DNA of 27,180 nt, taken from a virus. Taxonomy: Duplodnaviria; Heunggongvirae; Uroviricota; Caudoviricetes. The stretch lies in the IMG/VR virus record IMGVR_UViG_2740892115_000003; one strand, 5' to 3'. Made by a program: the position numbers and the translations under genes. Positions 4,454 through 11,431 of this stretch are shown in pieces. Positions within the stretch are counted from its first letter, which is position 1, and every line of letters starts with the position of its first letter. The notes below the pieces were generated by a model. That model was not told the origin of the DNA. It saw only the letters and a list, made by a program, of their open reading frames with translations, and searched no databases.

Positions 4454-5005
4454 ATGAAACTCAAACCAATGGGTACACCTGGTGTGGCTCCGGCACATGT
4501 AAAACCATGGACACAGCAGGAGGATGAACTTTTAGCCACGTTATACCACTCCCACACAGCGCCGGAGCTGACAAAACACCTTCAGAGAACCGAGTCAGCA
4601 ATACGAAGTCGCATCCGTCTTTTGCTCTCTCAGGGGGTTATTCACGCCAAACGCCCCCACCTGAGCACAAAAGAACTCAGCATGCTCATCAGGAATCGCC
4701 ACACAAAAACTATCCGGGAACTCGCGAATGAGCTGGGGCGCTCGCCATCCACGGTGGAACTGAACCTGAGAAAAAGAGGGTATCGGTTCAGGAAATACGG
4801 GGAACTCCACCACAGAACCAGATACAGCGATCACCTGGTGGAGTTGGTAACTGAACTGCGTGATGAGAAGGGGATGACATTCAGCGAAATCAGGAAGCAC
4901 ATCCGGGACACAGCCGGGATATCCCTTAAAAGATGGGTTCCCGCCCGGCTTTACGCACGATATACCGCCGCTGACACCGTGCTTTGCGAACTGCTACCGG
5001 ACTGA
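4454..5005 (+). CDS. Myb/SANT-like HTH DNA-binding protein (putative regulator)
   Basis: An AAGGGAG ribosome-binding site lies upstream. KPWTQQEDELLATLY...TESAIRSRIRLL is Myb/SANT-like. A second HTH-like segment is TIRELANELGRSPSTVELNLRKRG. Confidence 0.75.
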   Translation: MKLKPMGTPGVAPAHVKPWTQQEDELLATLYHSHTAPELTKHLQRTESAIRSRIRLLLSQGVIHAKRPHLSTKELSMLIRNRHTKTIRELANELGRSPSTVELNLRKRGYRFRKYGELHHRTRYSDHLVELVTELRDEKGMTFSEIRKHIRDTAGISLKRWVPARLYARYTAADTVLCELLPD

Positions 5006-5094
5006 GTAACCACTATGCACACACAAAAAAACCGCTTGCCATGCCGCAATCAGTCAGGTTACATTTTCGCTGCACCTCATAAAACGGGTGCCGG

Positions 5095-5120
5095 GTTTCG
5101 CAGCCTGCTGACAACCAAAG
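5095..5120 (+). promoter_or_regulatory. Upstream pair of boxes complementary to the 5188-5263 RNA (analogue of P1 a1/b1 or P4 seqA)
   Basis: TTCGCAG (5097-5103) and CAACCAAAG (5112-5120) are exact complements of 5241-5247 and 5226-5234. Confidence 0.4.
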
Positions 5121-5152
5121 CGCACAACCGCGCCAGCGGTTTTTTTGTGCGT
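5121..5152 (+). terminator. Intrinsic terminator-like hairpin with U-tract
   Basis: AACCGC (5126-5131), a GCCA loop, GCGGTT (5136-5141) and a T-run through 5146 (7 T in total). The outer arms CGCACAA and TTGTGCG could extend the stem. Confidence 0.5.
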
Positions 5153-5187
5153 ACTGTATTGCCACGTTTTTTTCGCACACGAATTAT

Positions 5188-5263
5188 GGCGGGGCGTACG
5201 GGGCCGACTTCGGTCGGGCCGGGTTCTTTGGTTGCCGGTACTGCGAACCCCGTACGTCTCGCC
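5188..5263 (+). ncRNA. Putative cis-encoded antisense regulatory RNA (P1 c4 / P4 CI-like architecture)
   Basis: The hand fold has a 16-bp closing helix, 5188-5203 with 5248-5263. Two of its pairs are G-U wobbles valid only on the plus strand. Inside are hairpin 5204-5217 with a C(UUCG)G loop, hairpin 5218-5239, and a single-stranded junction 5240-5247. The 3' flank is ACCCA. The loop and junction carry the antisense boxes. No credible ORF covers this region. Confidence 0.6.
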
Positions 5264-5270
5264 ACCCACA

Positions 5271-5318
5271 GTTTCGCAGCTCTGGATGGTGAGTTTTCAA
5301 AACTTACAACCAAAGAGG
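5271..5318 (+). promoter_or_regulatory. Downstream target boxes overlapping the ribosome-binding site of the 5326 ORF (analogue of P1 a2/b2 or P4 seqC)
   Basis: TTCGCAG (5273-5279) and CAACCAAAGA (5307-5316) complement 5241-5247 and 5225-5234. The second box overlaps the AAGAGG Shine-Dalgarno (5313-5318), which sits 7 nt before the ATG at 5326. A small hairpin (5292-5304) lies between the boxes. Confidence 0.5.
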
Positions 5319-5325
5319 CCACACC

Positions 5326-5556
5326 ATGGCAAACCGCAAACAGCACCGCGCTATCGCGGAGCGTCGTCACATCCAGACTGAAATCGATCGCAGACTCACC
5401 CGCGCCGCACACATCGCCTTTATCATGCAATCCAACACATTGCACAGACTCAACAGCACTATTTCAGCCGACTACTGCGCCGCTGTATTCAGCTATCTGG
5501 CGGAAGACCTCCTGTCTCTTCAGGATCTCATCCAGCAGCAAAACAAACTCCATTAA
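5326..5556 (+). CDS. Small protein at the icd/eta position downstream of the antisense RNA, function unknown
   Basis: This is a 76-aa ORF with a good AAGAGG ribosome-binding site. Its helical composition is plausible. The competing overlapping ORFs look spurious. Confidence 0.55.
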   Translation: MANRKQHRAIAERRHIQTEIDRRLTRAAHIAFIMQSNTLHRLNSTISADYCAAVFSYLAEDLLSLQDLIQQQNKLH

Positions 5557-5628
5557 TTCCTGTTCCGGGCCTTTCTTGCACCTTGCGGCGGGAGGCCTTC
5601 GCACATCTGTAACCAGAGGATTGCCGCA

Positions 5629-5994
5629 ATGATTCTCGCCAACGACTTTCTTGAATACCTGCTCAACACAGAGCGTGATCTTGCCGTTCGCGTGCGTGAC
5701 CGTTATGACATGTACCTGAAATCCCTGCCTGTACCGCAGCTCGCTGACGGAAAGATTGTTATTGATGGCCGCTACATGATTGACAGCCACGAGGGAAATT
5801 ACAGGCTTTACCGCATTGAAGGTGGCACCCCGTCCGTTATTGGCATTTACCAGCGCCCATCCTCTGCAATCGTCGATGTGATTGCCGACAGCATCCGCAT
5901 CACACATCGCCATGCCGACACAGAAGACACCGTGCTGGAAATTCAGCGGCTGGCTGCCGTCTGCCGCGACACCCTGAATGGCATGACGAAGTAA
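5629..5994 (+). CDS. Hypothetical protein immediately upstream of A
   Basis: This is a 121-aa ORF with an AGAGGA ribosome-binding site. It ends 6 nt before the A start. I recognise no family. Confidence 0.6.
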   Translation: MILANDFLEYLLNTERDLAVRVRDRYDMYLKSLPVPQLADGKIVIDGRYMIDSHEGNYRLYRIEGGTPSVIGIYQRPSSAIVDVIADSIRITHRHADTEDTVLEIQRLAAVCRDTLNGMTK

Positions 5995-6000
5995 ATCACT

Positions 6001-8802
6001 ATGACGGCAGAGTACATCAGGGACTGGCAACAACCGCGCCACGCGGTGGGGCGTGAAGGAACGGGGATCCCCGCTCCTGAATCCGCGCTTTCCTCCTGGC
6101 TGGGCGCCTACCGGGTAGAGAACGAGCGCCGCCAGGAAATGGCTGATGCGGCGTTCTCCGCCACGCCGCTGGGCAACCTGATTAATAAAAGCTTGGACGC
6201 ACAGGAAAAACAGGACAAAACCATCACACTGGCAGGAGACGCCAGAAAACAGGCACGCGGCGCGGTGGATGAAGCCATGGCCTCGCTGCGCCTGCTGCCG
6301 TCCTATCTGCGCGATCCGCTTATTCGCCACCTCTCCTTCCTGCGCAAAAAACAGGAAGCCGATCGCCGGAAAGGCAAAAAGAGCTGGCAGGCGGAACGCT
6401 ATGCACGCGGAACCCTGCGCAAAATATTCGAACGTCTGGACCGCACCGATCACCGCTGGCTGACACCGGGTTATCGCTCCCTTGCTGGACGCGAACGCCT
6501 GGACGATTTGCTTTACCTGCCGCAGCTCAACAAACACCAGATACAGACGCTGGCCACCATGACGGCGGCGATGTTCAGCAGCACCTTCGAAAAACTCTGC
6601 GATGGCTTTGGCGCGACTGATGGCGAACTGACCATGGATGTAACGCTGAAGGCGTATCAGATGCTGGCCCGCATGGCGTTACACCTGCACGCCATGCCTC
6701 CACATTATGACTCACTGACAACAGACAAAGACCGGAGGAACGAACCGGACACAGAGCTGCTGCCGGGCGCAATCCTTCGCCTGACCTGTGCGGAATGGTG
6801 GAAACGCAAACTATGGCTGTTACGTTGCGAGTGGAGAGAAGAACAACTCCGCGCCGCCTGTCTGGTTTCCAGAAAAACATCGCCCTATCTGAGCCAGGAC
6901 GCGTTAAGCGAGTTTCGCGCACAGCGCGAGAAAACACGCGATTTCCTGAAAAGTTTCATGCTGGAAAACGAAGACGGGTTCACGATTGATCTCGAGACAG
7001 TGTATTACGCGGGAGTAAGTAACCCGGTTCACCGTAAGGCAGAAATGATGGCCACCATGAAGGGACTGGAACTTCTGGCCGAAGCCCGTGGCGACAGAGC
7101 GGTGTTTCTGACTGTCACCTGCCCGTCAAAATACCACGCAACAACGGAGAACGGTCATCCGAACCCCAAATGGAACGGGGCCACCATGCGCGACTCCAGC
7201 GATTACCTGGTTAACACGTTTTTTGCGGCGGTCCGCAAAAAACTGAACCGCGACGGCCTGCGCTGGTATGGCATCCGCACGGTGGAGCCTCACCATGACG
7301 GCACCGTGCACTGGCATATGATGGTCTTTGCTCATCCGGAAGAAATCGACAGCATCGTGGCCATCACCCGCGATATTGCCATTCAGGAAGACCGCCACGA
7401 GCTGGGCAATGATATTACTCCGCGCTTTAAAGTGGAGTATGTCGACGGCTCAAAAGGCACACCAACCAGCTATATCGCGACCTACATCGGGAAAAACCTG
7501 GACAGCCGCGCCGTGGATGGCATCGACCCGAAAACGGGCAAACCACGCGTTGACCACGAAACCGGAAAATCAATGGCCGAGAGCGTGGAGCGCGCCATCG
7601 GTTGGGCACGCCTTCACCGGGTCCGCCAGTTCCAGTTCTTTGGCATCCCCTCCCGTCAGGTGTGGCGTGAACTCCGCCGCCTTGCCAGCCAGATGGCACG
7701 CAACCCGGAAGGCCCGCAACGGCTGAAGGATGACGCAATGGATGCGGTACTCGCTGCCGCTGATGCCGGATGTTTTGCCACCTACATAGAGAAACAGGGC
7801 GGCGTACTTGTTCCACGCAAAGACTACCTGATTCGCACCGCCTACGACCTCGCCGATGAGCTGAACGATTACGGCGAACAGAGTGTACAGATTTACGGGA
7901 TCTGGTCACCACTCATCGGGGAATCCTCCCGTGTGTGCACGCACCCGGATAACTGGAAGCTGGTAAGACGTAAACCGGAACAGGAAGGCAGCGCCCACGA
8001 AAATGGTTTTGACCTTCAGGGCGGCCCTGCCGCCCCTTGGACTCGTGGCAATAACTGTCCCCGTGTACAGGAAACGGACAACAACGGGACAGAACAGCCG
8101 GAAGAACGGCCAGCACCGTGGCCGCAGCTTCCTGACGGCGTTGACGTGAACGAATGGATGCGCTCACTGAAACGGCACGAACGCCGGGCGCTGATGCATT
8201 CGCTGCGTGACAAACAGGCAAAAAACAGCAGTGATGAAATGCAGAGCTGGACACAGAGCCGCAAACAGCAGCGGCCTTTGCCTGATAACCACGAATTACT
8301 CGCTAAAGAATGGCGGGAGTCTGCCGAATCTCTCGGCCTGCATATCGGTGAACAGCAGATGCAGCACCTGTTACGGGGCGGCAGTCTGTACGTTGACGGC
8401 AGCATCATTGCACCGCAGGGATTTGAAATTGTACGCAAACCGGATACCCGACCGGACAGCCGGATCACGCAGCTCTGGCAGCGCCTGAGCCGTAACCACG
8501 GCGTAAGCAGTACGGAGATCCGCCATAACCCGGTCGCCAGCTATCTGGAACAGCTGAGGGCATCAGACCCCGAAGCCGCCGCACGCCTGGCATCCACACT
8601 TCAGCAAGACCAGAACACCATGAAAACACCCGTTACCGTGCTTTCTGACATGCTGCGCGCCATCCGCGACGCAGAGCACGCACAGAGAATCAGTGAAACC
8701 ACTGAACGCGCCCGCCGCAAAGCAGACCTGCTGCGGGGTGGCCTGACCAGTGGAAACAAAAAACAGACAGAAACGGGATTTCAGAATCCCGTAAACGATT
8801 AA
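6001..8802 (+). CDS. A: Rolling-circle replication initiator endonuclease (P2 gpA family) with a long C-terminal extension
   Basis: It has an HUH motif (GTVHWHMMVF) and a paired-tyrosine motif (SYIATYIGKN). It aligns broadly with remembered P2 gpA (LTVTCPSKYH and VEPHHDGT.HWHMM). Its position is syntenic. Confidence 0.95.
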   Translation: MTAEYIRDWQQPRHAVGREGTGIPAPESALSSWLGAYRVENERRQEMADAAFSATPLGNLINKSLDAQEKQDKTITLAGDARKQARGAVDEAMASLRLLPSYLRDPLIRHLSFLRKKQEADRRKGKKSWQAERYARGTLRKIFERLDRTDHRWLTPGYRSLAGRERLDDLLYLPQLNKHQIQTLATMTAAMFSSTFEKLCDGFGATDGELTMDVTLKAYQMLARMALHLHAMPPHYDSLTTDKDRRNEPDTELLPGAILRLTCAEWWKRKLWLLRCEWREEQLRAACLVSRKTSPYLSQDALSEFRAQREKTRDFLKSFMLENEDGFTIDLETVYYAGVSNPVHRKAEMMATMKGLELLAEARGDRAVFLTVTCPSKYHATTENGHPNPKWNGATMRDSSDYLVNTFFAAVRKKLNRDGLRWYGIRTVEPHHDGTVHWHMMVFAHPEEIDSIVAITRDIAIQEDRHELGNDITPRFKVEYVDGSKGTPTSYIATYIGKNLDSRAVDGIDPKTGKPRVDHETGKSMAESVERAIGWARLHRVRQFQFFGIPSRQVWRELRRLASQMARNPEGPQRLKDDAMDAVLAAADAGCFATYIEKQGGVLVPRKDYLIRTAYDLADELNDYGEQSVQIYGIWSPLIGESSRVCTHPDNWKLVRRKPEQEGSAHENGFDLQGGPAAPWTRGNNCPRVQETDNNGTEQPEERPAPWPQLPDGVDVNEWMRSLKRHERRALMHSLRDKQAKNSSDEMQSWTQSRKQQRPLPDNHELLAKEWRESAESLGLHIGEQQMQHLLRGGSLYVDGSIIAPQGFEIVRKPDTRPDSRITQLWQRLSRNHGVSSTEIRHNPVASYLEQLRASDPEAAARLASTLQQDQNTMKTPVTVLSDMLRAIRDAEHAQRISETTERARRKADLLRGGLTSGNKKQTETGFQNPVND

Positions 8803-8826: not shown

Positions 8827-9786
8827 ATGAAAATTTGTATCGATGACGGCTCCACCAACATCAAGCTGGCATGGACTGAGAACGGCGAACGCCGCAACGC
8901 CATCAGCCCGAACAGCTTCAAGTCGGAATGGTCTGCGCCGTTCGGTGGCACGCAGCCCGCGAACTACATGCTTGATGGCGTGCGCTATGGTTTTGATCCG
9001 GTCAGCGATCGCTTTGTCCAGACGACTGACACGCAATACCAGTACAGCGATGTGAATGTCATTGCCATTCATCACGCGTTGGTCAAATCAGGCATCACGC
9101 CACAGGAGGTGGATGTGGTTGTCACCCTGCCACTGAGCGAGTATTTCGACACAAACGCACAGCCGGACATAGCCAACATCAACCGCAAAAAAGCGAACGT
9201 TATGCGCCCGGTGGAGTACCAGAACGGCGAAGCATTCACTATCCGTAACGTACGGGTTATGCCTGAATCCATTCCGGCTGGCTTTAAGGCACTGGCTGAC
9301 ATGAGTCCGTTTGAATCCCTGCTGATTGTGGATTTAGGCGGAACCACGCTGGATGTGGCAAAGGTTCAGGGACAACTGGCAGGTATCAGCCAGGTGTTTT
9401 GCGATCCACACGTAGGCGTTTCCCTGATGGCCGATGCCGTACTGTCGGTGATGGCCACTAACGGTATGCGTACCAGTCACCACATCGCCAATACCATTAT
9501 CGAACATCGCCATGATGAAGCCTGGCTGCGCCAGCACATCCACAATGACGCGCATTACGCCAGCCTGATGGCGGTTATTCGTGAAAAGGAAGAAACACTG
9601 AAACAACGCGTGATCCGCGCGCTGGCGGGTTTTTCGGGTTACGGGCGGGTGATGGTTGTCGGTGGAGGGGCGGAGATTGTGGCACCCGCTATCCGCGAAG
9701 CCTGCGGAGTTAATGCGACTTTCATCGCGGACGGGGTGCCACAGTTTGCTCTGGTTAATGGGCTGTACGCAATGGACAAGGAGTAA
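8827..9786 (+). CDS. parM: Actin-like plasmid segregation ATPase ParM/StbA
   Basis: It aligns along its full length with plasmid R1 ParM (from memory). Shared motifs are IDDGSTNIKL, ISPNSFKSEW, VMPESIPAGF, DLGGTTLDV and GGGAE. Confidence 0.93.
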   Translation: MKICIDDGSTNIKLAWTENGERRNAISPNSFKSEWSAPFGGTQPANYMLDGVRYGFDPVSDRFVQTTDTQYQYSDVNVIAIHHALVKSGITPQEVDVVVTLPLSEYFDTNAQPDIANINRKKANVMRPVEYQNGEAFTIRNVRVMPESIPAGFKALADMSPFESLLIVDLGGTTLDVAKVQGQLAGISQVFCDPHVGVSLMADAVLSVMATNGMRTSHHIANTIIEHRHDEAWLRQHIHNDAHYASLMAVIREKEETLKQRVIRALAGFSGYGRVMVVGGGAEIVAPAIREACGVNATFIADGVPQFALVNGLYAMDKE

Positions 9787-9790
9787 ACCA

Positions 9791-10102
9791 ATGACGACAC
9801 CAACCAGACGGATAAGTTTCTATCTGAAGCCTGCGGCCGTCAAGAACGAAAGCGAAGCATGCGCCTGGCTGGACAGCCTTACACCAGAAGCCCGCAAAAG
9901 CGGCCAACGCGTGGCTTTTCTGGCCGGGCTGGCACTACTGAAAATGAATCCGGCAGAGGCTTACCGACTGGCTGCATGGGCTGATGATGAGGCATTATCA
10001 GTGACACAAACCAGGACAGAACGCCCCGCGTCACAGCCAGTATCAGCCGCACAGATAACCAGTCAGATGGCCGGAAATATCCGGGCGTTATTTCCCGAAT
10101 AA
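9791..10102 (+). CDS. parR: ParR-like centromere-binding adaptor (RHH N-terminus)
   Basis: The ATG at 9791 follows AAGGAG. RRISFYLKP...LDSLTPEARKSGQRVAFLAGLALLKMNP parallels R1 ParR (RRTIAFKLNP...LDSIPQGERSRLNRAALTAGLALYRQDP, from memory). It sits immediately after parM. Confidence 0.8.
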   Translation: MTTPTRRISFYLKPAAVKNESEACAWLDSLTPEARKSGQRVAFLAGLALLKMNPAEAYRLAAWADDEALSVTQTRTERPASQPVSAAQITSQMAGNIRALFPE

Positions 10103-10667: not shown

Positions 10668-11075
10668 TTAAATATAATCTTCTTCGTAGTCGCTGATTAA
10701 TTCATTGCCATAATCAGACAGCAATTTCAAAGCAAAGGTAACTTCCTCAAGGGTAGCTATCCCCATTGCTGAAAACACCGTTAATTTAACCAGCAGCAGG
10801 GAGTTTGAAAGTTCGGAAGAGTTCATCATTAAAAATATTGATGCAGCCTGAAAAGCTGTGCGTTTATTCCCATCATGAAAGGCATGAGCCTTGGCTATAC
10901 CAATCAAATACATAGCAGCCAGAGCATGAATATCATCAACCCCTTCATAGTAGTGTAGTGTCCTGACGCGATTTAAAGCACCTTCAAGTAGCCCGTCATT
11001 GGCATTTCCGCTCTGGGGTAAAGTTTCAGCATGGATACGTTCTACTTGTTCTTTTGACAAAAACACTATGTCCAT
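10668..11075 (-). CDS. doc: Doc (death-on-curing) Fic-fold toxin
   Basis: It carries the Doc/Fic motif HAFHDGNKRTAF. It is 135 aa long, and its start overlaps the stop of the upstream antitoxin ORF. Confidence 0.92.
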   Translation of the reverse strand: MDIVFLSKEQVERIHAETLPQSGNANDGLLEGALNRVRTLHYYEGVDDIHALAAMYLIGIAKAHAFHDGNKRTAFQAASIFLMMNSSELSNSLLLVKLTVFSAMGIATLEEVTFALKLLSDYGNELISDYEEDYI

Positions 11076-11431
11076 CAGTTATCCTCAAGCTTTTTAATGA
11101 TATCCGCATGTTTTTCTCTTGTACGCTTCATTGCATCTTCAAAAGACAATCCTTTTTTTCTCTGTGCGACAAGAGCTGGATGACGTTTTTCCAGATCTCT
11201 CACTGCATTTATTAAGAGTGGTTGCTTCATTTTGTTTATTTGATCCCGCAGTTTTTTGGTTTTGCCAAGGACAGCCCGTATTTCAGGACTAAGATCAGAA
11301 CCAGCAAGAACAACATCCTTCCCTCCCTGCGCAGTGATAACGACACTGCCACCGGAAGAAAGGTAATCCAGAATTTCACTCAGGTTCTCACGAAATTCAT
11401 CATCAGTTACAGTTTTCATATTCATTTCCAT
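11075..11431 (-). CDS. Phd/YefM-type antitoxin (long form)
   Basis: The N-terminus TVTDDEFRENLSEILDYLSSGGSVVITAQGGKDVVL has a Phd/YefM-fold pattern. It is translationally coupled to doc. The start may be an internal ATG (11425 or 11419). Confidence 0.8.
   Translation of the reverse strand: MEMNMKTVTDDEFRENLSEILDYLSSGGSVVITAQGGKDVVLAGSDLSPEIRAVLGKTKKLRDQINKMKQPLLINAVRDLEKRHPALVAQRKKGLSFEDAMKRTREKHADIIKKLEDN

Follow-up and report, generated by a model that had tools for sequence, protein, structure and literature searches.

The C4 RNA of phages P1, P7 and N15 and the CI RNA of P4 are established in the literature as diffusible repressors (PMC3632133). Barquist et al. (2013) identified IsrK with seqA and C4 with CI, and described IsrK-C4 systems in lambdoid prophages (PMC3632133). 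For the prophage Gifsy-1 it has been published that an anti-repressor gene located downstream is driven by the isrK promoter, that the read-through RNA is a trans target of IsrK, and that the region behind IsrK gives rise to a processed RNA, STnc1160 (PMC4825925). Lysogens express both of these small RNAs at high levels (bioRxiv 10.1101/787010). The present analysis concerns a gap in the window, that is, in the whole 27,180-nucleotide (nt) DNA of IMG/VR virus record IMGVR_UViG_2740892115_000003, to which the positions below refer. The gap lies between the stop codon of a 183-amino-acid (aa) DNA-binding gene at 5005 and an ATG at 5326, in the early operon of a P88-like prophage. It very probably holds a self-contained RNA cassette of the P1 c4 / P4 CI / Gifsy-1 IsrK kind.

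When the whole window was scanned with Rfam at curated thresholds, only two matches were obtained, C4 and isrK, both full length and both in this gap. The C4 match (RF01695) scored 87.1 bits against a threshold of 45 and covered model positions 1-87 of 87 (E = 3.5e-16); the isrK match scored 65.9 bits. P4 gives the same pair of matches over its seqA and CI regions (60.8 bits for isrK on the seqA region), and the pair is also found in phages P88 and Shae_phiSM (phiSM below) and in Gifsy-1, whose IsrK scores 79.3 bits. The membership in the C4 / P4 CI class that the initial annotation had proposed from the letters of the sequence is supported by these family models. The C4 RNA and the boxes that pair with it are as follows.

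5182-5269, plus strand: C4-type antisense RNA, with the folded core at 5187-5264
5225-5234, plus strand: box b', UCUUUGGUUG (as DNA TCTTTGGTTG), in the loop of C4 hairpin 2
5241-5247, plus strand: box a', CUGCGAA (as DNA CTGCGAA), in the unpaired three-way junction of C4
5097-5103, plus strand: box a1, TTCGCAG, upstream complement of the junction box a'
5112-5120, plus strand: box b1, CAACCAAAG, upstream complement of the loop box b'
5273-5279, plus strand: box a2, TTCGCAG, downstream target of a'
5307-5316, plus strand: box b2, CAACCAAAGA, overlapping the Shine-Dalgarno sequence AAGAGG at 5313-5318

Folded alone, 5187-5264 takes a Y shape made of a 17-bp closing helix, a C(UUCG)G hairpin at 5204-5217, a second hairpin at 5218-5239 with a 12-nt loop, and an unpaired 8-nt junction at 5240-5247. 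The minimum free energy (MFE) is -49.2 kcal/mol with a z-score of -5.05, a value as good as this being reached in none of 200 shuffles. The initial annotation had drawn the same shape by hand with a closing helix of 16 bp, and all of its coordinates and sequences were found to be correct in a sequence check. It had also ascribed the fold to the plus-strand transcript because of the G-U pairs 5192/5259 and 5194/5257. These pairs are kept in 51-52 of the 54 relatives described below, and the opposite strand folds worse (-35.3 kcal/mol; z-score of -2.79), in agreement with that claim.

For comparison, 80 related loci were fetched via the 76-aa protein encoded directly downstream and 120 via the exact C4 hairpin-1 sequence, and 54 distinct P88-like sequences were aligned for the analysis of covariation. 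The intramolecular helices of C4 are 98.7% paired in these sequences, and the closing helix is 100% paired with two compensatory pairs. Hairpin 1 is invariant in the motif-fetched loci, since its sequence had been the selection criterion. Among the loci fetched via the protein, however, a variant hairpin 1 was found, CCAGC-AUCA-GCUGG versus CCGAC-UUCG-GUCGG, which shows two compensated pairs and another tetraloop. This variant occurs in ten loci, approximately 130 nt before the open reading frame (ORF), and carries a further b' type, GUCCUCUGUUAG, which is matched by its own b2.

The boxes a' and b' have two colinear sets of complements, a1/b1 upstream and a2/b2 downstream, at the positions that the initial annotation had given, with b2 lying over the AAGAGG ahead of the ATG at 5326. 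The end of b2 is 9 nt before the ATG in most variants. The 9-mer CAACCAAAG is found three times in the 27-kb window, all three in the module, where 0.31 occurrences are expected; three occurrences were reached in none of 100 shuffles. The 7-mer TTCGCAG is not rare, with five copies found versus 5.2 expected in the window, and three of the five copies lie in the module in the required order.

Window, phiSM and P88 show 96% column identity at the module. The differences are almost only in the boxes, and they are complementary at all three sites, as seen in the following sets.

Box a', window: CTGCGAA; targets TTCGCAG, twice
Box a', phiSM: GTTCCAA; targets TTGGAAC, twice
Box a', P88: GTGGAAA; targets TTTCCAC, twice
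Box b', window and phiSM: TCTTTGGTTG; targets CAACCAAAG(A)
Box b', P88: TCTGTAGTTG; targets CAACTACAG(A)

Among all loci, at least 20 b' variants and at least 11 a' variants are combined in many ways, with the targets at fixed offsets. In the alignment of 54 sequences, 97.7% of the cells are paired between the C4 boxes and a2/b2, and 11 of the 17 pairs have changed on both sides (a2, 100% and 5 of 7; b2, 96.1% and 6 of 10); for a1/b1 the values are 99.4% and 12 of 16 (a1, 99.7% and 5 of 7; b1, 99.2% and 7 of 9), such cell counts overstating independent events in a set of closely related sequences. Even in such a set, the variety of box types speaks for repeated change. The covariation score is 0.589 for a2/b2 versus 0.124 in shuffled data and 0.642 for a1/b1 versus 0.116, and neither observed score was reached in any of 500 shuffles. 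When the register of the downstream a2/b2 pairing was slid as a control, at most 52% of the cells were paired. Variable columns make up 59-80% of the boxes versus approximately 28% elsewhere. The covariation that the initial annotation had proposed to look for is therefore present between the boxes and both target sets, and compensatory changes accompany it in the closing helix and in hairpin 1. These comparative data point with good confidence to a functional C4-type RNA that would pair with both box sets.

An accidental origin of the fold and of the complementarities, in a GC-rich spacer without function, might be suggested by the 7-mer, which alone is not over-represented in the window. The two covariance-model matches with E-values of 1e-12 to 1e-16, the threefold 9-mer, the failure of the shuffles to reach the observed covariation, and the conservation of the module in 1,283 of 5,426 complete E. 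coli genomes all oppose this. A chance origin is thus exceedingly improbable, and it may be regarded as already refuted by the comparative data.

Two loci depart from the strict matching of boxes. In L015 the b' loop is of the P88 type and is mismatched at two positions to its own b1 and b2, which are of the window type, and in L027 two positions of box a1 do not agree with a'. Both may be recombinants with weakened control. In addition, two C4 modules are present on different prophage contigs in seven isolate genomes. The box sets differ in all seven, once by only two bases of b', and these differences were not counted as evidence because they are near chance expectation with about 30 circulating variants.

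A different reading of the same region is that it encodes the Pfam "Ash" protein, in the 205-codon frame 5015-5632 (plus strand) or in a shorter one from ATG 5185 that is the counterpart of Gifsy-1 orf45, the RNA features being secondary. The long frame spans the whole region and matches Phage_ASH (PF10554) with residues 16-107 at 30.8 bits, above the threshold of 26. RefSeq names an "ash family protein" here, 52 of the 54 relatives keep the frame open throughout, and translation of orf45 has been reported in Gifsy-1 (PMC4825925). The initial annotation had seen no believable ORF in the gap; this statement stands as far as a coding signature is concerned, but it had passed over a frame that scores above a family threshold. 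The variable columns outside the boxes amount to 0.31, 0.27 and 0.28 over the three codon positions of the 5015-5632 frame, so that neither a third-position excess nor any other coding signature is seen in it, and across 5188-5263 the homologues show no synonymous-site or codon-position bias. Furthermore, the box changes are radical in the encoded residues and yet exactly complementary at three sites. Indels of +1 and -1 shift the frame between the boxes in three relatives, an in-frame stop is found in one relative, and stops lie upstream in another. The RefSeq label at the gap is that of an incomplete pseudogene, ATG 5185 is without a Shine-Dalgarno sequence, and the frame overlaps the conserved downstream ORF (see below) out of frame. 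The Phage_ASH match itself covers nt 5060-5335, which coincides exactly with the isrK-to-b2 RNA module; this coincidence suggests that PF10554 may owe its origin to conceptual translations of isrK-C4 loci. A protein as the main product of the region seems very unlikely, and the name "Ash" has most likely been given to an RNA locus in conceptual translation. A Phage_ASH or "ash family protein" frame lies on the RNA module likewise at locus L206, 5956-6216.

Upstream of C4, the elements of a separate leader transcript were recognized.

5036-5065, plus strand: sigma-70-type promoter-like site (TTGCCA, spacer of 17-18 nt, TTACAT/TACATT), from a consensus scan
5072-5146, plus strand: IsrK / P4-seqA-type leader RNA with boxes a1 and b1 (Rfam isrK RF01394, threshold 50 bits)
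5126-5146, plus strand: intrinsic terminator of the leader (AACCGC-GCCA-GCGGTT, then T7), from a terminator scan

The start predicted from the promoter-like site, approximately 5072, is the first base of the isrK match. Every P88-like locus retains the hexamers and the distance between them, even one in which the spacer sequence has diverged, and in each of the other module classes, as in P4, a separate promoter-like site occupies the equivalent place. In the leader, box a1 is in the loop of hairpin 2 and box b1 is single-stranded, followed by the terminator, the helix of which is 100% paired in the 54 relatives. The position of this terminator is presumably that of P4 t1. The window leader scores as isrK and not as c4-a1b1: the Rfam model c4-a1b1 (RF03163) gave 19.6 bits at 5059-5111, below its gathering score of 46.7, whereas the Gifsy-1 leader passes it at 48.1 bits. 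Despite this sub-threshold score, the a1 and b1 boxes are present and co-vary in the window leader.

A second promoter-like site, at 5159-5187 (plus strand; TTGCCA, 17-nt spacer, AATTAT), lies between the terminator and C4 and was considered as a dedicated C4 promoter. It was rejected because about half of the relatives have TCGCCA as the -35 hexamer, and because its -10 hexamer overlaps the conserved 5' flank of C4, so that transcripts from it would lose the 5' strand of the closing helix. The site is probably non-functional. Among phages with at least three unrelated upstream genes, near-identity starts at CACAAAAAAACCGC, near position 5027 of the window and about 45 nt before the leader start. 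Since near-identity begins there in spite of the unrelated upstream genes, the stretch from the promoter to the first downstream gene appears to be a mosaic unit.

Three genes follow the module in one direction.

5326-5556, plus strand: 76-aa ORF, distant homologue of the P4 epsilon protein of helper derepression (PHROG 3688, E = 1.7e-37)
5629-5994, plus strand: 121-aa ORF in the same transcription unit (PHROG 3237, function unknown, E = 4e-55)
6001-8802, plus strand: replication initiator A of the GPA family (Pfam Phage_GPA, 435 bits; "replication endonuclease" in P88 and phiSM)

The initial annotation had placed two small ORFs and A downstream, which is the case, and had made no remark on the epsilon-like nature of the first. 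The 76-aa protein shows 29% identity to P4 epsilon over 66 aa in BLASTP (E = 2e-8) and a probability of 96.1% in hhalign; its match to Pfam Derepression (PF25738) is 22.1 bits, below the threshold of 27. Its orthologue in P88 bears the name "derepression protein". A C4 with a matching b2 precedes the gene in all 80 loci related to the 76-aa ORF, which is presumed to be the primary C4 target. From these similarities, its product is a candidate anti-repressor. The 121-aa protein has no Pfam match and no similarity to P4 ORF151, and no NCBIfam match was obtained for the 76-aa, 121-aa or A proteins. A 31-codon frame (MVSFQNL...) at 5286-5381 (plus strand), which runs from ATG 5286 through b2 into the beginning of the epsilon-like gene, was considered as a leader peptide like icd or orf45. 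It was rejected because it is without a Shine-Dalgarno sequence and absent from many relatives.

The resemblance to P4 extends over the whole arrangement. In both, a promoter (PLE in P4, predicted in the window) stands directly before an isrK-type leader with two target boxes and an intrinsic terminator, and a C4-family RNA follows, with its boxes in the hairpin-2 loop and in the junction. A second target pair lies downstream, the second box being over the Shine-Dalgarno sequence of the first ORF. After C4 or CI, the 3' strand of the closing helix contributes to a hairpin whose loop contains the first downstream box. Next comes a gene of the epsilon family, followed by a replication gene, and all elements match in order and strand. 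The box sequences, however, are unrelated, and P4 has a 65-aa ORF between seqC and epsilon whereas the epsilon-like ORF comes first in the window. P4 is a satellite with the alpha primase-helicase, in which CI is the sole immunity factor. The window is a complete P2-type phage of the helper class with a GPA rolling-circle initiator and its own C/Cox switch, and C4 would be an added layer there. The immI region of P1/P7 and the N15 anti-immunity region share with the window the Rfam C4 family, the order a1-b1 / C4 / a2-b2, and the position of b2 over the ribosome-binding site of the first ORF. The downstream genes of P1/P7, icd and ant, are not homologous to the epsilon-like gene, the 121-aa ORF or A. 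The hetero-immunity of P1 and P7 rests on box differences, and the many box variants among the relatives of the window fit this pattern.

By analogy with these systems, the following course of events may be proposed. Transcription would start at about 5072 from the cassette's own promoter at 5036-5065, and most transcripts would end at the 5126-5146 terminator, giving an IsrK/seqA-type RNA of approximately 75 nt that displays a1 and b1. A read-through transcript would yield C4 (5187-5264), excised by RNase P and 3' trimming as in P1 and P4, and the mature RNA is expected to be a stable species of approximately 77 nt. Boxes b' and a' of this RNA would then bind a2 and b2 in a transcript of the same type. 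Since b2 covers the Shine-Dalgarno sequence of the 76-aa ORF, C4 would block its translation, and probably would also silence the 121-aa ORF and A through lost coupling, Rho polarity or the hairpin at 5258-5297. Pairing with a1/b1 might strengthen termination at the leader terminator, which would be autoregulation as in P4. Alternatively, free leader might titrate C4 and turn the operon on, in the manner of IsrK in Gifsy-1. The box sequences would set the specificity, and near-identical phages with different boxes would be hetero-immune at the RNA level. The initial annotation had called the RNA cis-antisense. The antisense pairing stands, but the RNA is on the targets' own strand, co-transcribed with them and trans-pairing, and is not an opposite-strand RNA.

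Because the first ORF is epsilon-like, the nearest analogy is RNA control of an anti-repressor together with downstream replication genes. By a modest preference, the main effect is taken to be that C4 masks the ribosome-binding site of the epsilon-like gene, while polarity or termination would hold A silent in lysogens. By the same analogy, the module may act as an immunity or replication-control layer over the C/Cox switch.

The segment after C4 can adopt another structure, which was found as follows.

5258-5297, plus strand: alternative hairpin in which CUCGCCA, the 3' strand of the closing helix, pairs with UGGUGAG (5287-5293), with a2 in the apical part and UUUU behind it

This hairpin belongs to the MFE structure of the read-through transcript and competes with the C4 fold; taken alone, it has -16.5 kcal/mol (z-score of -3.1). 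It looks like a terminator. Its pairing co-varies across five sequence types at equal offset, P4 being included.

CTCACCA / TGGTGAG
CTCGCCA / TGGCGAG
GCTACCA / TGGTAGC
GCTATCG / CGATAGC (also in P4)
CACCG / CGGTG

The hairpin is presumably the counterpart of the published P4 terminator t4, reportedly described by Briani et al. 2000.

Gifsy-1 resembles the window in the succession of isrK, C4 and an anti-repressor-type gene, in a promoter of its own (predicted in the window) and a leader terminator (leaky in Gifsy-1), and in the predicted stable fold with cis pairing of leader and C4. It differs in being a lambdoid prophage with a downstream Rha/Ant-type anti-repressor, whereas the gene of the window is epsilon-like. 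Among the relatives, it alone has a leader RNA for which reporter and mutational data have been published (PMC4825925). The authors of that work took the C4 segment as a translated ORF and described activation by IsrK as the net effect (Hershko-Shalev et al. 2016, PMC4825925). The "orf45"/STnc1160 region downstream of IsrK gave a 69-bit Rfam C4 match (L205, 34131-34214, minus strand).

Several points weigh against the cassette as proposed above. The relatives compared are a sample of close kin, fetched by the exact hairpin-1 motif or by the downstream protein. The kinship with epsilon is distant, the Pfam score being sub-threshold and the identity 29%. The terminator scan did not call the 5258-5297 hairpin, and its U-tract has only four residues. 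The C4 region of Gifsy-1 was reported as a translated "orf45" that is needed for coupling, and over-expressed orf45 did not act as a simple repressor (PMC4825925). Finally, the MFE structure of the 5072-5340 read-through RNA pairs the leader boxes with C4 in cis and leaves b2 free, so that it is uncertain which conformer dominates and which sign the regulation has.

This last structure is what would be expected of an activating switch of the Gifsy-1 IsrK type, in which the read-through mRNA is inactive by cis pairing of leader and C4, free leader remodels it in trans, and C4 is chiefly structural. The pairing of a1/b1 with a'/b' in cis matches the inactive "structure A" of Gifsy-1, in which anrP translation rose more than 100-fold with IsrK supplied in trans (PMC4825925), and the Gifsy-1 "orf45" region is itself the Rfam C4 match given above. 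The co-variation, however, is equally strong for a2/b2, which the cis model alone does not need. In addition, the Shine-Dalgarno sequence and b2 are unpaired in the MFE structure of the window, so that the cis fold alone would not silence translation, and C4/CI is described as a diffusible repressor in P1, P7, N15 and P4 (PMC3632133). An activating switch with a chiefly structural C4 is thus a weaker candidate, to which perhaps a minor share of belief should be given. The activating and repressor modes do not exclude each other.

With repression by C4 as the preferred reading, the setting of the cassette can be considered. The window is a P2-type prophage of E. coli belonging to the P88 group, genus Xuanwuvirus (Peduoviridae). 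Its nucleotide identity is 98.5% to Citrobacter phage Shae_phiSM over 1.7 kb and approximately 93% to Escherichia phage P88, both of genus Xuanwuvirus. The order of integrase, C, Cox, small early genes, gap, 76-aa ORF, 121-aa ORF, A and ParM is common to the three. A divergent C gene (helix-turn-helix repressor) and Cox stand beside the integrase, with Pfam scores of 80 bits for Phage_Cox and 435 bits for Phage_GPA, and P2-type structural genes are present in the window; the P2-type context given in the initial annotation is borne out by these features. The module together with the first ORF (501 nt) is present in the 1,283 E. coli genomes mentioned above, which is approximately 24%, and pdxB adjoins a 100% match in the chromosome of E. 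coli OZ039818.

P2 itself is like the window in integrase, C, Cox, GPA-family A and structural genes but has neither the RNA module nor the epsilon-like gene: no isrK or C4 match was found anywhere in its genome, and no epsilon-like gene lies between cox and A. P88, phiSM and the matching RefSeq records carry no RNA annotation at the gap, and P88 has an opposite-strand "hypothetical protein" there. No description of the module was found in the literature on P2-like, Peduoviridae, Xuanwuvirus, P88 or phiSM phages. This kind of RNA is already known; what appears to be undescribed is its occurrence in a P2-type setting, where its cargo is an epsilon-like gene together with gene A. The module is thus common, being present in about a quarter of complete E. 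coli genomes, and yet it is left unannotated or called an "ash family protein" pseudogene.

With the module, the C/Cox switch of P2-type phages, which textbooks present as a matter of proteins only, would gain an RNA layer, and as a shared regulatory cassette the module links helper-type phages with the P4 satellite. P2, the prototype of the group, is classically non-inducible, and the epsilon-like candidate anti-repressor could explain induction of P88-like prophages. It is tentatively suggested, as one possible view that is more doubtful than not, that P88-like P2-type phages carry the whole immunity/derepression cassette of their own satellite P4, from the promoter, the seqA leader, the CI RNA and seqC to an epsilon-like anti-repressor, and keep an antagonist of the C repressor under a private RNA lock. 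If this were so, the fast-changing boxes would serve as address labels by which each prophage silences only its own copy. A phage whose boxes differ, whether it is incoming or co-resident, could still make its epsilon-like protein and derepress its rivals, and an RNA-coded layer of inter-prophage conflict and induction control would then exist in the phage group of P2. The dozens of natural box variants in near-identical backgrounds also form a ready set of orthogonal RNA-target pairs on which specificity rules of C4-type regulators could be tested.

Plasmid-maintenance genes are located directly after A, namely ParM at 8827-9786 and a Plasmid_stab_B protein at 9791-10102. Genes for a Doc/Fic toxin and a Phd antitoxin are found at 10668-11431 on the minus strand, in what is an integrated P2-type prophage. 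The classical C4-RNA phages P1, P7, N15 and P4 are phage-plasmids; ParM, the stability protein and Phd/Doc would fit a capacity for plasmid-state lysogeny like that of P4, P1 or N15, if such a capacity existed here.

Many lambdoid phages carry the module before Rha/anti-repressor genes, including Stx-converting phages, mEp460, ST64B and cdtI. The C4 hairpin-1 core is found in at least three lambdoid loci of the set and in many Stx2a-converting phages, in which a Rha/anti-repressor-type ORF is the first after b2. One lambdoid record, LC710660, already annotates both isrK and C4.

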